Shown here piece after piece: positions 2,142-61,021 of a stretch of 64,000 bases of DNA. This DNA is from Candidatus Dojkabacteria bacterium (GTDB lineage Bacteria; Patescibacteriota; Dojkabacteria; J137). The notes beneath the pieces were generated by a model, which was given only the letters and a program-made list of their open reading frames with translations, searched no databases and had not been told where the DNA came from. The stretch is taken from the NCBI GenBank assembly GCA_025999215.1, contig AP024679.1, positions 36,007 to 100,006 of the forward strand, written 5' to 3'. Each line of letters starts with the position of its first letter. Within the stretch, counting starts at the first letter, position 1. The position numbers were made by a program, and so were the translations under genes.

Positions 2142-3515
2142 ACTTCGCCAATTCCAACTCCCTGATAATTAAATCCTGCGCTTTTTAGCTCTTTGCGATT
2201 CAAGGCATTTCGAGCATCAATAACTACTCGAGCTTTGGTTTGTTTAGAAAGTTTTTTCCAGTTTATATTTTTAAATTCATTCCATTCAGTTGCAATTACT
2301 ATAATTTCTGCTTGCTCTACTGCTTCTTCAATACTTTTACAAATCTTGATTGATGTATCTAAGTCTCGTCGAGCTTCTTCATTTGCTTGTGGATCAAAAG
2401 CAAAAACATAGAGTTTATGTTTTGCTAGAGTGTTAGCAAGTTTGATCGATTGAGATTTTCTAACATCACTGGTTCCTGGCTTGAATGAAAGCCCTAGTAT
2501 AGCTACTTTACTCTTGTTTATTTTTAATACTTTTTGAGTAACAAACTCCGGCATAAAATCATTAACCTGAACCGCTCCATCTAAGATTGGATTACTAAGA
2601 CCAAAAGCTTTAAAAGTTGACATCAACCCACTTACATCCTTCGGAAAACAACCACCACCCCAACCTAATCCTGCATAAAGGAAAGATCTTGAAATTCTTC
2701 TATCTAAGCCTAACCCATCCATAACTTCATTGATGTTTGCTCCGGTTTCGTCGCATAAAAGTGCAATAGAATTAGCAAATGAAATTTTTAAAGCTAGAAA
2801 AGCATTTGCTGTTACTTTAATCAATTCTGCACTTTCTATACTTGTCAAAACAAGTTTGCTGACAAAGTTACCTTTACCGTTATCGTCAGTGATGTAAGTT
2901 TTAGCGTATTCTTGAAAATTTTGTGTATCAACTGTATTTTTAAACTCATCGACATTTTTAAAAACTTCAATTATCTTAATTTTTGCATTTTCGTCACCAC
3001 CACCAATTACAACTCTATCTGCATGAAGCGTATCATAAATTGCCGAGCCTTCACGCAAAAATTCTGGATTTGAAATATATGAAAATTTTAAATTCGGATT
3101 TATTTTTTTAACTAAATCAATGATTTCTCTCCCTGTCCCTACTGGTACAGTACTTTTTTGAACGAAAATAACTTGGTCTTTCGAATGATTAGCAACAACT
3201 TCCTGCTACTTCAAAAACGTATCTGAGATCAGTGCTTCCATCAGGTAAATCTGGAGTTCCAACACAAGAAAAAACAATTTTGCAATTTTGTAAAGCTTCT
3301 TTATGATTTACTGTAGATATTAAATTTCCTGTTTTGATTCCTGACTCTATAAAACTATCAATTCCTGGTTCGTAAAAATAAGATTTTCCCTTTTTAATTG
3401 TTTGAATTTTACTTTCATCAACATCAACAGCCCAAACTTTATAACCAACATTTGCCAAAATTGCTGCAGTACTAAGTCCAACATACCCTGTTCCTATTAT
3501 TGCTATATTATCCAT
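2138..3515 (-). CDS. ugd: UDP-glucose 6-dehydrogenase, interrupted by one frameshift near 3205-3215
   Basis: The N-terminal piece carries MDNIAIIGTGYVGLSTAAILA. The downstream piece reads ...HSKDQVIFVQKSTVPVGTGREII...GFNYQGVGIG in a frame offset from the first by one base. The offset corresponds to one missing base in GCAGGAAG. Confidence 0.8.
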
Positions 3516-3696
3516 GGGAATTTTAATAAAAATTAATTTAGAAAATTATAGAAAATAAAATACAACAAATCCAAAAATTAATTAAAAAATGTAGGATTAA
3601 GCAATAGTCTTAAAAATTTGAAATATAAAAATGTTTTAGAATTTTTACTAAAAGTTTCAAGAATAGATGGAGACAAAAACCAGACCTATAGCAAAC

Positions 3697-4686
3697 TTAT
3701 TTATAATAACTCAAATACCAATCGATAAAAGCCTTAAGTCCAGCTTCAAGGTCTACTTTTGGATCAAAACCTACTGCATTTTTAATTTTCGAAGTATCTG
3801 CATAGGTTATCTCTACATCGCCCGGTGCTGGTTCGGTCAAAACAAGATTAGCTTTTTTATCAAGATATTTTTCAATCAAATTTACAAAAACTTTAGTACT
3901 ATAGGGTTTGCCATAACCAATGTTATAAACTTCATAATTTGGTAATATCTCAATTTTTGATTATTAAATTTATAGCTTCAACTATATCTGAAATAAAGGT
4001 AAAATCTCTTTTATTATTACCGTAATTAAACAATTTTATTGGTTCATTGTTCAATATAGATTTCGTAAAAATGATGGCAGCCATATCTGGCCTACCCCAA
4101 GGTCCATAAACAGTGAAAAAACGCAGTCCTATAGTTTGGATGTTAAACAAGTGTGAATAAACATGGGCCATAAGTTCATTTGATTTTTTAGTTGCAGCGT
4201 AAAGACTAATTGGCTTGTCCACATTAATTCCTTCATTAAAGGGTACTTTTTCAATGTTACCGTAAACAGAAGATGAACTTGCATAAATAATTTTTTTAAT
4301 TGAAAAGTTTCTTGCAAATTCTAAAATATTAAAAAAAGCTATAATGTTAGAGTCAATGTATTTTTGCGGATTAGTTATTGAATATCTCACACCAGCTTGA
4401 GCTGCAAGATGGATAATAAGATCAAAATTATATTTTTCTAATTTTTGAAAATTGGAATTATTGGATAAATCAAGTTTTAAAAATTTGTAATTACAAATTT
4501 ATTACTCTTGACCAAATTAGATTCGAAATCATCAATTCCCTGTAATTTTAATCTTTCATGCTTTAGTGAAACATCATAATAATCATCTATAGCATCTACC
4601 CCAATCACTTCATGATCTTGATTTAGTAATTGAAGTACTAAATGATGACCTATAAAACCTGCTACACCTGTAACTAAAATTTTCAT
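3697..4686 (-). CDS. NAD-dependent nucleotide-sugar epimerase (UDP-glucuronate/UDP-GlcNAc 4-epimerase-like), split by two frameshifts
   Basis: Three ORF pieces read the N-terminus MKILVTGVAGFIGHHL, the middle IHLAAQAGVRYS...SLYAATKKSNELMAHVYS...GLRFFTVYGPWGRPDMA and the C-terminus EVYNIGYGKP...VGFDPKVDLEAGLKAFIDWY. The frame changes at about 4485 (an A3 versus A4 run) and about 3950 (an A5 versus A4 run). Confidence 0.8.
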
Positions 4687-56957: not shown

Positions 56958-57752
56958 TTATAATTTAGAAGTTAAAATATACTCTATCACCATAAACCTT
57001 TCATCCTTGTAAAAAGGTATGGTAGAAAACTTAATAGGTACCTTTATACCATGAAAATTAAACTTAACAGTCCTATTGTCATGGTGATTAAAGTCTAAAG
57101 GTTTAGATTTAATTATTTTATTCCAATAATTCCACGCAAATTTTACTTTCTTTATTTTCTCTATTGTATCTAAATATATAGGATCATCCACCATGTAACC
57201 ACACTCAGAATAATACAAATCCAGTAAATGCTTTATAGTCTCTTCATAAGTATTTTTATCAACAAATTTTCCACCCCATTCCGGATCTAGCGCAATATCT
57301 AACAAACTCCGTCCATAAACATTTTCATATTCTTTCTTAGACACGCCTGATAGTTTTATAAACAAATTAGAAGCTTTCCAAACTCTGTACCTATCGTCAA
57401 TCATATACCCAAACACCCACGGCTTATTAAAAAGCTCTCTTACGGATTCAACTGCTTTTGTTACGTCTTCTTCACTTGGTGGATCCATTCGTTTACCATA
57501 TGTGTATTCTCTCTCAAGTAAACTCATCTCTAACACATCTGCTATCGCGTTTAGAGTTTCTTTGTTGGCGTTTGTTACTCCATTTTCTATTCTTGAAATT
57601 GAGCCTGAAGCAGCTCCTATTTCTAACTCCACATCAAACTGTGATAATCCAGCTCTTTTTCTAAAATATCTTAACCTTCTACCTGTTTTCATTGCTTGCA
57701 TTGTTCTTTGATCGGTATAGTCTATTTTAAATTTATTTTGTTGCTTAATCAT
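56958..57752 (-). CDS. XRE-family helix-turn-helix protein with a ~150-aa C-terminal domain of unknown function (paralogue 1)
   Basis: Carries LRYFRKRAGLSQFDVELEIGAASGSISRIENGVTNANKETLNAIADVLEMS (HTH_XRE). Confidence 0.6.
   Translation of the reverse strand: MIKQQNKFKIDYTDQRTMQAMKTGRRLRYFRKRAGLSQFDVELEIGAASGSISRIENGVTNANKETLNAIADVLEMSLLEREYTYGKRMDPPSEEDVTKAVESVRELFNKPWVFGYMIDDRYRVWKASNLFIKLSGVSKKEYENVYGRSLLDIALDPEWGGKFVDKNTYEETIKHLLDLYYSECGYMVDDPIYLDTIEKIKKVKFAWNYWNKIIKSKPLDFNHHDNRTVKFNFHGIKVPIKFSTIPFYKDERFMVIEYILTSKL
57378..57686. repeat. direct repeat copy A (~309 nt, near-identical to 58165..58473)
   Basis: The encoded residues 23-125 and 37-139 of the two XRE paralogues are essentially identical. 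The plus-strand antisense ORFs 57458..57664 and 58245..58451 translate almost identically (differing only near one end). The period is 787 bp. Confidence 0.8.
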
Positions 57753-58581
57753 GTTTACGAATTAAGTATTCCACTAAATTAAACCTTTCGTCAAGATGTA
57801 ACGGTACTATAGAAAAATACACTGGATAACTAAACAAACCCGTATTAAACGTAACTTTTCTTCTTTTAACATCTTGAAGCTTCAATGGTCTCGATGATTT
57901 TACCCGTGGCCATAGCTCTTTAACTTGATCATTTGTATCTAAAAAGTAAATAGTTTTACTAACCACATCATCATCTACCATAAATCCACACTTTGTATAA
58001 AAAGACTCTAACAAATCTTTTAGAATATTAAAATAACTATTTCTTTTGAGAAATTTTTTTCCAAGATTATCATCCAATACAATCTCAATTAGCGATCTAC
58101 CCTTGTTTTTATCTACTTCATCTTGATTTAGTCTTAAAAATCTCCTCATCGCATTTGATATTTCCCAAACTCTATACCTATCATCCAATAAATACCCAAA
58201 CACCCATGGCTTATTAAAAAGCTCTCTTACGGATTCAACTGCTTTTGTTACGTCTTCTTCACTTGGTGGATCCATTCGTTTACCATATGTGTATTCTCTC
58301 TCAAGTAAACTCATCTCTAACACATCCGCTATCGCGTTTAATGTTTCTTTATTGGCATTTGTTACTCCGTTTTCTATTCTTGAAATTGATCCTGACGCTG
58401 CTCCTATCTCTAATTCAACTTCAAACTGAGAGAGATTGGCTCTTTTCCTGAAGTATCTTAGTCGTCTTCCAGTGATGAAGGCATCCCCCAGCATACTTGT
58501 AGTGCTGTGTTTTTTTTTGGCTGTAAATGATGCCTGTAGTTTCATTGCGGTGATTTTACAACAAGTACAAGTTGATGTCAA
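57745..58581 (-). CDS. XRE-family helix-turn-helix protein (paralogue 2; the true start is probably the internal Met at about 58494)
   Basis: Same HTH as paralogue 1. The C-terminal domain is homologous but diverged. Confidence 0.6.
   Translation of the reverse strand: MTSTCTCCKITAMKLQASFTAKKKHSTTSMLGDAFITGRRLRYFRKRANLSQFEVELEIGAASGSISRIENGVTNANKETLNAIADVLEMSLLEREYTYGKRMDPPSEEDVTKAVESVRELFNKPWVFGYLLDDRYRVWEISNAMRRFLRLNQDEVDKNKGRSLIEIVLDDNLGKKFLKRNSYFNILKDLLESFYTKCGFMVDDDVVSKTIYFLDTNDQVKELWPRVKSSRPLKLQDVKRRKVTFNTGLFSYPVYFSIVPLHLDERFNLVEYLIRKHD
58165..58473. repeat. direct repeat copy B
   Basis: See copy A. Confidence 0.8.
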
Positions 58582-58981: not shown

Positions 58982-59515
58982 ATGAAATGGAGTTTTTTGA
59001 ATATTTTAAATGACGCACTGTTACCTGCTTCGTTAATGATAGTCTCAAAGTTTATTGGAGTTTTTGTAGTTGTGCTTTTATTTAACCTTGATTGGAGTTT
59101 GGAGGAATATTCAAACCAAATATTTGCATTCGGTACAACAAAAAGTGTAGATGACGCTATTATTATCACTAGCTATTCAGATTTGTTTATGTATTTAGTC
59201 ATGGTTTTGTTTTTGAGCTTTTCTATAATTAGAGCAGTTTTTTTTCATTCAACTCACATTAATCCAGAAATTTTTTACAAACTTACTCTCAATAATCTTT
59301 CGGACTTGGTTAAGAATTCTTTTGTTATCTATAAATCTGCAACTATTTGGCTAATTTTTACAATTTTTGCAAACTTAGTTATTCTTGCAAATTCAGTCCT
59401 TGGCAAAAGTTTTGCGTGGATTGGATTACTTACCGCTTCAATTACAATTAGCCTTGCGGTAATTTTAGCTAGCGATGTTTCTAGGGAAATTAAATCTCAG
59501 AAAAACATTAAATAA
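58982..59515 (+). CDS. small integral membrane protein (about 4 TM)
   Basis: Hydrophobic segments LLPASLMIVSKFIGVFVVVLLF, LFMYLVMVLFLSFSII, IWLIFTIFANLVILA and IGLLTASITISLAVILA. Confidence 0.4.
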   Translation: MKWSFLNILNDALLPASLMIVSKFIGVFVVVLLFNLDWSLEEYSNQIFAFGTTKSVDDAIIITSYSDLFMYLVMVLFLSFSIIRAVFFHSTHINPEIFYKLTLNNLSDLVKNSFVIYKSATIWLIFTIFANLVILANSVLGKSFAWIGLLTASITISLAVILASDVSREIKSQKNIK

Positions 59516-59627
59516 TTTTATTTTTTTCTAGATTTAAGAATTGCCACCCCTAACATTAATTAAGTTTCTCGAGAGAAATTATTAAACAGCTGTTGAAAAA
59601 ATTTTTATAATGTCCTAGTCTGTAAGT

Positions 59628-59870
59628 ATGGAATATCCAAATTACATTTCAAGGTTGTTTTGGGAATACGATATATCTCTTTTAAATCACAAGTTACATA
59701 AAAATTTAATTATCGAGAGAGTATTGGAAAAAGGAAATTTTGACGCTATCTCATGGCTATTTAAAAATTATTCTTTTTCTGATATTTGTGAATCATTGTC
59801 GTCTCCAAACATTTCATCACCTACACGCTTTTTATGGCAAAATTATTTTGCTAAAATCACTCAAGCTTAA
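59628..59870 (+). CDS. small protein (80 aa), putative partner/antitoxin-like component of the downstream nucleotidyltransferase
   Basis: Its stop lies 9 nt upstream of the start of the NTase gene, a gene pair on one strand. No HTH was recognised with certainty. Confidence 0.3.
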   Translation: MEYPNYISRLFWEYDISLLNHKLHKNLIIERVLEKGNFDAISWLFKNYSFSDICESLSSPNISSPTRFLWQNYFAKITQA

Positions 59871-59879
59871 AATTATTCC

Positions 59880-60521
59880 ATGAAAATATTTAACGAAGTT
59901 TTACCTGATTACTCTTTTGATTTATTTCAAAAAATTAGCACAAATTCTAGTTTTAATAATTTCTACCTTGCTGGTGGGACATCACTTGCTCTTCAGCTAG
60001 GTCATCGTGAATCCATCGACCTAGATTTTTTTACCAATGAACCATTTACAACTTCAATCATGAATTCATTTCCTGCAAAATATGAAGTTATTCGTTTATT
60101 TGATAACTCAATTGAAATCTTTGCGCAAGACACCAAAATCATGTTTTTTTATTTTGCTTTTCCACTCTACAAACCTTTAATGAAACATAAAGGTATGAAA
60201 TTAGCTCATCCAATTGACATTGGATTAATGAAACTTTTAGCATTGCAAGGCAGAACTACAAAAAAAGATATCATTGATCTTTATTTTATTGATCAAAAAA
60301 TTATTGCATTAGAGAAATTATTAGAAATTTTTGAAAAAATTTACCCTAAGGAAGGTTTCAATAGCTACAGCAGTATTAAATTACTTTTTGATGAAAATTT
60401 ATTAAAAAGTGAACCTCTTCCTAAAATGTTTCACGAAATAAATTGGGAAGAGTGTTTCGAATTAGTAACTAGCAAAGTTTTACAACACATCAATAAACTA
60501 CTCAATGGTTATTCCACTTAA
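59880..60521 (+). CDS. nucleotidyltransferase-fold protein of the AbiEii/DUF1814-like (type IV toxin / abortive-infection) class
   Basis: FYLAGGTSLALQLGHRESIDLDFFT matches the minimal NTase motif G[GS]x9-13DxD and the AbiEii-type (K/A)GGTAL...R.S.DiDf signature. Confidence 0.5.
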   Translation: MKIFNEVLPDYSFDLFQKISTNSSFNNFYLAGGTSLALQLGHRESIDLDFFTNEPFTTSIMNSFPAKYEVIRLFDNSIEIFAQDTKIMFFYFAFPLYKPLMKHKGMKLAHPIDIGLMKLLALQGRTTKKDIIDLYFIDQKIIALEKLLEIFEKIYPKEGFNSYSSIKLLFDENLLKSEPLPKMFHEINWEECFELVTSKVLQHINKLLNGYST

Positions 60522-60568: not shown

Positions 60569-61021
60569 ATGCTAGTGTATTTAATTTTAAATATGAATAA
60601 CGATTTAACTCAGCTTACTAAAAACATCAAAGTTGCTCAAATCATTGAAATAAACAAGCATCCAAATGCTGATAGATTAGTACTCGTAAAGCTAGATATT
60701 GGAGCTAATCAAGTTGTAGAAATTGTAACAGGTGCCACCAATATTAATGTTTCTGATTTTGTGCCATTTCTCTCTTCCGGGTCGATAGTGCCCGGTTACA
60801 AAATATTTGAAAACAAAACCATACTTTTGCAACCAAAAGATATACGAGGAGTGGTTAGTAATGGAATGATTTTATCTGAATTTGAGGTCGGTTTTAGTGA
60901 TGATCATAGTGGTATATTTATTTTGAATGAGTTTGGAATCAATGAGGATGATATTGGAAAGAGCTTAATTGAAGTAATACCTGAAATTTTAGAAAAAGTA
61001 AGTAATAATTTTAATTATTAA
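60569..61021 (+). CDS. stand-alone tRNA-binding domain protein (CsaA/Trbp111-like, EMAP/Myf fold)
   Basis: Carries KVAQIIEINKHPNADRLVLVKLDIGANQVVEIVTGATNI...VVSNGMILSEFEVG. Confidence 0.75.
   Translation: MLVYLILNMNNDLTQLTKNIKVAQIIEINKHPNADRLVLVKLDIGANQVVEIVTGATNINVSDFVPFLSSGSIVPGYKIFENKTILLQPKDIRGVVSNGMILSEFEVGFSDDHSGIFILNEFGINEDDIGKSLIEVIPEILEKVSNNFNY

Follow-up and report, generated by a model that had tools for sequence, protein, structure and literature searches.

A conserved cassette of a DUF6922 protein and a minimal DUF1814/AbiEii nucleotidyltransferase in Candidatus Dojkabacteria: a candidate toxin-antitoxin module

RESULTS

Two adjacent genes encode a DUF6922 protein and an AbiEii-type nucleotidyltransferase

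The window, by which we mean the whole stretch of 64,000 nucleotides (nt) analyzed here from contig AP024679.1 of a Candidatus Dojkabacteria metagenome-assembled genome (Patescibacteria/candidate phyla radiation [CPR]), contains two adjacent genes whose products the database record labels hypothetical (KatS3mg085_105 and _106). An earlier reading of the bare sequence (here called the sequence-only reading) had proposed that the pair consists of a nucleotidyltransferase (NTase) toxin in the AbiEii/DUF1814 style and a small partner. The upstream open reading frame (ORF) encodes an 80-amino-acid protein that matched PF21956 (DUF6922) with 54.2 bits (cut-off, 27; E value, 9.9e-15) and no other Pfam family. 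The downstream ORF encodes a 213-amino-acid protein that matched PF08843 (AbiEii), the profile against which the sequence-only reading had proposed to check it, with 52.5 bits (curated cut-off, 22.5; E value, 8.5e-14). Because both ORFs match Pfam families above curated cut-offs, they are not chance ORFs. The ORF coordinates also bore out the earlier statement that the small gene ends 9 nt upstream of the large one on the same strand, the gap running from 59871 to 59879 (Table 1).

Table 1. Features of the cassette and its upstream region, in window coordinates
Feature	Position	Strand	Basis
DUF6922 protein, 80 aa, putative antitoxin/neutralizing partner	59628..59870	+	PF21956 match
Minimal DUF1814/AbiEii/MenT-class nucleotidyltransferase, 213 aa, putative toxin	59880..60521	+	PF08843 match
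NTase motifs I and II, residues 30-51, LAGGTSLALQLGHRESIDLDFF; G32, G33, R43, S45 (predicted phospho-acceptor), metal-binding D47 and D49	59967..60032	+	Invariant in 32 family members
NTase motifs III and IV (K118 ... R125 ... K129 D130 .. D133)	60231..60278	+	Invariant in 32 family members
Promoter-like site: TAAACA, 17-nt spacer, TATAAT	59583..59611	+	Consensus scan, 10/12
Conserved block TAGTCTGT directly ahead of the small gene's start codon	59616..59623	+	Common to the window, L081 and L084

About 200 relatives of the large protein were found, each of ~210 residues, and PF08843 was present in all 120 of those listed. PADLOC AbiEii models matched the protein weakly and partially, and no NCBIfam model matched either cassette protein. 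Motifs I and II of the family have been described as hG[G/S]...DhD, with metal-binding carboxylates (PMC3985639). The window NTase has A31-G32-G33 followed by D47-L48-D49, and the AbiEii/DUF1814-style motif claimed for it earlier was confirmed by the segment LAGGTSLALQLGHRESIDLDFF at residues 30 to 51, by the PF08843 match, and by the fold. In an alignment of 32 sequences, L30, G32, G33, T34, L36, G41, H42, R43, S45, D47, D49, F51, K118, R125, K129, D130, and D133 were invariant. The active-site loop of the family, R-x-S/T-x-D with a Ser/Thr phospho-acceptor, was found as the invariant motif R43-E44-S45-I46-D47, and the catalytic lysine and downstream aspartate of motifs III and IV were found among the invariant residues K118, R125, K129, D130, and D133.

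The residues of the window NTase were also compared with those of the MenT toxins, for which the published catalytic residues are R37, T39 (the phospho-acceptor), D41, D43, K137, and D152 in MenT1; R76, S78, D80, K189, and D211 in MenT3; and S67, D69, K171, and D186 in MenT4. This pattern is reproduced by R43-x-S45-x-D47-x-D49, K118, and D133, an equivalence that is based on the motif pattern and the alignment with JHP933 of Helicobacter pylori, not on a direct MenT alignment. The lysine-to-aspartate spacing of 15 is that of K137/D152 in MenT1 and K171/D186 in MenT4. JHP933 was the sole PDB sequence match of the window NTase, and the alignment spanned the same motifs. Moreover, the predicted structure of the NTase was of high confidence, and its best structural matches were DUF1814 NTases, the fold search ranking ANT(2'') below JHP933, MenT4, and MenT3. 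A housekeeping identity as an aminoglycoside or polymerase beta-type NTase was rejected on the basis of the PF08843 match and the rank of ANT(2'') under the DUF1814 structures. We conclude that, by sequence and predicted fold, the large protein belongs to the AbiEii/DUF1814 family and that its predicted active site is complete.

DUF6922 and the NTase are linked in all testable loci

A scan of one genome per species identified at least 561 loci with relatives of the NTase, spanning CPR groups, Bacteroidota, Chloroflexota, Proteobacteria, Planctomycetota, Acidobacteria, Bacillota, and others, and 80 loci were kept. When all reading frames in ~2.5 kb around the NTase were searched with an iterated profile, an adjoining DUF6922 homologue was detected in 78 of 78 testable loci, the remaining two (L014 and L028) being without upstream DNA. 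DUF6922 was directly upstream on the same strand in 76 loci and downstream in two (L029, 3929 to 4811; L072, 4004 to 4890), in which the NTase comes first and DUF6922 follows after 15 to 26 nt. Thus encoded first in the usual case, DUF6922 is separated from the NTase by a short gap or overlaps it. All of the aligned partners (68/68) matched PF21956 on their own. When every neighboring ORF was clustered, no third recurring gene family was found, the next cluster being an antisense shadow of the NTase.

The linkage was also tested from the side of the small protein, with four DUF6922 proteins obtained independently of the NTase. An intact AbiEii gene overlapped the 3′ end by 46 nt in three of the four, and the AbiEii gene adjoining the fourth was truncated. 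Moreover, the pairwise identities of the two proteins were correlated over the 78 loci (Pearson coefficient, 0.63), a value reached in none of 2,000 permutations. The sequence-only reading had named a housekeeping family for the NTase and a lack of conserved pairing in relatives as grounds for abandoning it; DUF1814 structures lead the fold matches, and as the pairing is conserved in every testable relative, the second ground falls away as well. We conclude that the two-gene cassette is real and well conserved and that the linkage is obligate in the testable loci.

We note that the two genes lie in one shared reading frame, in which they are separated by the stop codon TAA and the three codons AAT TAT TCC (59868 to 59879), and that read-through of the stop would yield a DUF6922-NTase fusion. 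A natural DUF6922-AbiEii fusion was not seen in the homologue lists.

DUF6922 is distinct from the described partners of DUF1814 toxins

In Pfam, the function of DUF6922 is given as unknown. When the 80-amino-acid protein served as the single-sequence query of a word-index search, it recovered itself alone, and a profile built from neighboring ORFs was needed to find its relatives. Exhaustive profile searching recovered 3,561 cluster representatives at an E value of ≤1e-3 and 1,366 at ≤1e-10, most of which are stand-alone proteins of 94 to 135 amino acids. Members carry the labels "hypothetical," "DUF6922 domain-containing," and, for fusions, "helix-turn-helix transcriptional regulator" (PGAP/RefSeq). 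The window protein was predicted to be compact and confidently folded, with five helices. A solved structural relative of DUF6922 was not found, and neither sequence profile nor fold gave a match to MenA1 or another solved antitoxin.

The partner families described in the searched literature for DUF1814 toxins are COG5340 (AbiEi, MenA3, and MenA4), COG4861 (MenA2), and the MazE-like MenA1. DUF6922 was unrelated by sequence profile and fold to MenA1 and to AbiEi/COG5340, the two families with solved structures. COG4861 proteins are described as far larger than their cognate toxins, and DUF6922 is set apart from them by this described size and by the match to no Pfam family other than its own. 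The obligate link between DUF6922 and a short AbiEii NTase is recorded neither in database labels nor in the searched literature; curator free-text notes may hold it. The best reading of these comparisons is that the cassette brings a putative fourth, uncharacterized partner family for DUF1814 toxins and that the NTase itself is of a known family.

One candidate identity for the pair is a canonical AbiE (AbiEi/AbiEii) abortive-infection system, and the sequence-only reading had pointed to such a system with an AbiEi-type partner. The pair is bicistronic with the partner first, and its NTase matches PF08843 and, weakly, the PADLOC AbiEii models, as AbiE would. The defining partner of AbiE, however, is the COG5340 protein AbiEi, with a winged helix-turn-helix (HTH) and a C-terminal domain, and the small protein at this locus is DUF6922. 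The cassette is therefore not a canonical AbiE system, an identity whose chance we regard as close to negligible. We note that no PADLOC model matched the 80-amino-acid partner, so that detection that demands an AbiEi partner would miss the system.

HTH fusions and NTase decay point to DUF6922 as the antitoxin side

Some relatives carry DUF6922 at the C terminus, behind an N-terminal HTH, and two unrelated types of HTH were found in this position. Fusions of the XRE/HTH_3/HTH_31 type occurred in L009, L060, P0319, and a Phocaeicola vulgatus plasmid gene, and a fusion of the HTH_17/MerR type occurred in L027. In the classic architecture of an antitoxin, a DNA-binding module is joined to a partner-binding module. 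The HTH fusions thus give the partner antitoxin-like features.

The cassette was found in at least three different genomic contexts within Dojkabacteria and also on plasmids, where copies lie beside ParG, CopG, VapBC-like, TacAT-like, and MbcA-like genes and transposases. The plasmid carriers include cultured organisms. On plasmid pPvulCL10_1 of P. vulgatus (L085, 1489 to 2672), HTH_3 is fused to DUF6922 in the partner, which RefSeq labels "helix-turn-helix transcriptional regulator," and on plasmid ece1 of Aquifex aeolicus (L086, 1781 to 2585), a divergent DUF6922 with a profile E value of 3e-7, below Pfam detection, is encoded upstream under the label "hypothetical protein." A tandem array in L022 (1168 to 4612) contains three NTase genes and two DUF6922 genes. 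Adjacent co-oriented genes, a short gap, conserved pairing, and varying contexts, which are among the generic genomic features of a toxin-antitoxin (TA) system, were thus found for the cassette.

Several loci contain a damaged NTase beside an intact DUF6922. The NTase is split in L032 (3971 to 4582) and internally deleted in L091 (2719 to 2991) and L092 (409 to 681). In L089 (2761 to 3353), a 10-nt deletion frameshifts the NTase relative to the 98%-identical L088, in which the NTase is intact and from which the DUF6922 protein does not differ.

Damage to one gene and persistence of the other bear on the polarity of the pair. Minimal NTases serve as antitoxins in MntA/HepT systems, and in a pair organized as in MNT-HEPN, the role of toxin would fall to the small helical protein and that of modifying antitoxin to the NTase. 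Besides this precedent, the small and all-helical nature of the partner and the two loci in which the NTase is encoded first would suit such an arrangement. Both sequence and fold, however, place the NTase in the DUF1814 toxin clade, and DUF6922 had no HEPN Pfam match and no conserved R-x4-6-H motif in the alignments. Moreover, the HTH fusion, an antitoxin hallmark, sits on DUF6922, and the NTase decays while DUF6922 persists, the opposite of what reversed polarity predicts. We consider reversed polarity quite improbable.

Upstream sequences suggest that the cassette carries its own promoter

In the window, a −10 box with the sequence TATAAT (59606 to 59611) was located 16 nt ahead of the ATG of the small gene. 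The promoter-like site to which it belongs matched the consensus at 10 of 12 positions, a match that is weak alone in AT-rich DNA. In 23 of 67 loci, compared with 2.5 expected, the 60 nt that precede the DUF6922 domain contained a perfect TATAAT, mostly at −9 to −24. The enrichment of −10 boxes directly upstream suggests that the cassette is transcribed from a promoter of its own, and such placement predicts that cassette mRNAs would be near-leaderless, with a very short leader. At many loci of different phyla, −10 boxes that are perfect or extended, such as tgcTATAAT, were seen only ~5 to 15 nt ahead of the small gene's start codon.

A second upstream element, the block TA(G/A)TCTGT, lies a few nucleotides before the ATG of the small gene in the window, in L081 (~3737 to 3744), and in L084 (~3743 to 3750). 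These are the three closest Dojkabacteria cassettes, and L084, which shares the block, lies in a different genomic context. The TAGTCTGT block was absent upstream of more distant cassettes and of neighboring genes, and it could be an operator, an element of the 5′ untranslated region, or an initiation element. A palindrome around CTCGAG (59556 to 59585) was rejected as an operator, as it is only 76% complementary in an AT-rich region and is conserved in neither L081 nor L084.

A terminator scan found no terminator. No Rfam family reached its gathering score in the whole window, tRNA and rRNA models included, which makes an RNA antitoxin unlikely; the single sub-threshold Rfam hit near the module was taken as chance. 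A Shine-Dalgarno-like motif was absent from the 25 nt upstream of all 18 gene starts inspected between 45000 and 64000.

The cassette is an old resident of its slot in the window's lineage

The cassette is preceded by a gene (58982 to 59515) for a 177-amino-acid protein that contains four hydrophobic stretches and matches no Pfam family and followed by a gene with the PF01588 tRNA_bind domain (60569 to 61021; 56.6 bits). The sequence-only reading correctly placed the pair between a membrane-protein gene and a tRNA-binding gene; its description of the pair as inserted did not hold. In the related locus L081, the pair occupies the same slot, in the order HTH gene, rpsT, membrane protein, cassette, tRNA_bind, thioredoxin-like, DsbD-like, and RecX. 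Between the window and L081, both cassette proteins are 61% identical, and the flanking genes are 60 to 62% identical. The GC content of the cassette (0.28) and its GC content at third codon positions (GC3; 0.22 to 0.25) were inside the range of the neighbors, and the difference in composition or codon usage that the earlier reading had proposed to look for was seen in neither measure.

Horizontal acquisition as judged by GC content, GC3, and skew was rejected, the module lying within the range of its neighbors, with a local negative skew as the one oddity. GC skew was −0.09 to −0.23 over the cassette (59750 to 60250) versus +0.17 to +0.22 in the flanking plus-strand genes, at like GC content. 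Given the shared slot, the equal divergence in L081, and the matching composition, we conclude that the cassette is not a recent insertion in the window's lineage but has long been passed on vertically there, in a very small genome.

Long residence at the rate of the neighbors raises the question of whether the pair is instead a nontoxic enzyme of two subunits. The NTase would then be a physiological modifier or tagger of RNA or tRNA 3′ ends and DUF6922 its substrate-recognition or activating subunit, with a housekeeping or regulatory role in reduced CPR genomes. Vertical inheritance with a divergence rate equal to that of flanking housekeeping genes is consistent with such an enzyme, as are the lack of a compositional anomaly and the tRNA-binding-domain gene that adjoins the pair in the window and in L081. 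A further consistent point is a faint resemblance of the DUF6922 profile to a single Pumilio RNA-binding repeat: in a search of PDB sequences, the profile matched Pumilio proteins alone, over one segment of ~28 residues and with per-repeat E values of at least 2, and we treat the resemblance as a weak lead. A two-subunit enzyme fits poorly, however, with the HTH fusions, the TA-island contexts, and the asymmetric decay, and we consider it unlikely, with an appreciable residual chance. A functional link to the neighboring tRNA-binding gene was rejected, as that neighbor is missing from all other cassette contexts.

Two differences between the window and L081 were seen near the cassette. In L081, a gene for a 351-amino-acid NpmA/Methyltransf_4-like methyltransferase (2638 to 3693, minus strand) lies between the membrane-protein gene and the cassette, and a tblastn search of the window found no homologue of it. 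The window contains tandem paralogous XRE-HTH genes on the minus strand (56958 to 57752 and 57745 to 58581; 264 and 278 amino acids; 8-nt overlap), and L081 has a single copy (251 amino acids). The paralogues are 60% identical overall and almost identical over ~100 residues that comprise the HTH and the region next to it, which suggests a lineage-specific duplication or gene conversion.

DISCUSSION

We conclude that the DUF6922-NTase pair is probably an autonomous bicistronic cassette of the TA type, to which we assign a probability of roughly 0.65, and that DUF6922 is most likely an undescribed class of antitoxin. The observations on which this reading is based are membership of the NTase in its family, intact motifs, obligate linkage, codivergence of the two proteins, HTH fusions, mobile contexts, and decay of the NTase beside an intact partner. 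To these we add, as what we infer, that the NTase is toxic and targets tRNA and that DUF6922 binds it directly and induces its auto-phosphorylation. Free NTase would, by analogy with MenT1, MenT3, MenT4, and AbiEii, extend the 3′ CCA ends of tRNA with nucleotides, and this nucleotidylation would block aminoacylation and translation. DUF6922, which is encoded first and probably cotranscribed with the NTase, would be the cognate neutralizer and, again by analogy, would bind the NTase directly.

One way in which DUF6922 could neutralize the NTase is by causing it to inactivate itself. The structurally unrelated antitoxins MenA1, MenA3, and AbiEi each trigger self-phosphorylation of the toxin at an active-site Ser/Thr. 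Following these precedents, DUF6922 would most likely push the active-site loop such that the NTase phosphorylates its own S45, a step that we hold to be less likely than the TA-type reading as a whole. The sequence-only reading had offered a type IV label, which is dated, as AbiE and MenAT are now described as systems of antitoxin-induced toxin auto-phosphorylation (PMC11375011; bioRxiv 10.64898/2026.01.19.700257). Because the window partner is a bare DUF6922 without a DNA-binding module, autoregulation, if any, must differ from that of the HTH-fused relatives.

Several points weigh against the TA-type reading. No paper in the searched literature names DUF6922 and no experiment on any DUF6922 protein was found there, and a Pfam search detected no DNA-binding domain in the window's partner. 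MenT1 is nontoxic in Escherichia coli, and toxicity is thus not guaranteed by family membership. The equal divergence of cassette and flanking genes and the lack of a compositional anomaly count on the same side, as does retention of the pair in a genome with a contig of only 862 kb. Finally, relatives of the cassette were found neither on IMG/VR viral contigs nor in PHROGs, which leaves a phage-defense role without direct support.

A more specific proposal is that DUF6922 is a fourth, structurally unrelated antitoxin class for DUF1814 toxins that acts, like MenA1, MenA3, and AbiEi, by induced auto-phosphorylation of the active-site serine, and that the slot kept in Dojkabacteria reflects a domesticated role. 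We regard this proposal as tentative and its chance as falling somewhat short of even. If it is true, induced auto-phosphorylation would be a general property of the toxin and not of one antitoxin fold, and retention of the Dojkabacteria slot through ~40% protein divergence would point to domesticated control of tRNA charging in a reduced, host-dependent bacterium.

DUF1814 toxins, including AbiE and MenAT, are among the most abundant defense and TA systems, and the cassette ranges from CPR bacteria to human-gut Bacteroides and Phocaeicola. If DUF6922 neutralizes the NTase, the pair would allow the universality of induced auto-phosphorylation in the toxin family to be tested independently and would offer structural work a compact inhibitor domain of 80 residues. 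Otherwise, the pair would represent a conserved RNA nucleotidyltransferase of two subunits in minimal genomes.

In AbiE of Streptococcus agalactiae and Lactococcus and in MenAT3 and MenAT4, the partner is a two-domain COG5340 protein with a winged HTH and a C-terminal domain, whereas the window partner is DUF6922. The toxins of these systems are ~290 to 300 amino acids in length, compared with 213 for the window NTase. Phage resistance has been demonstrated for AbiE. The closest solved structure is JHP933 (PDB 4O8S and 4OK0), which is ~20% identical to the window NTase and is entered as a putative nucleotidyltransferase. The closest functional analogue is MenAT1 of Mycobacterium tuberculosis (Rv0078B/Rv0078A), in which toxin and partner are likewise both short and the partner lacks a DNA-binding domain. 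MenT1 and the window NTase are only ~12% identical, and the window partner showed no homology to MenA1. MenA1 is a MazE-related protein of 68 amino acids that is predicted to be disordered and that binds via one extended helix, whereas DUF6922 is predicted to adopt a compact fold of five helices.
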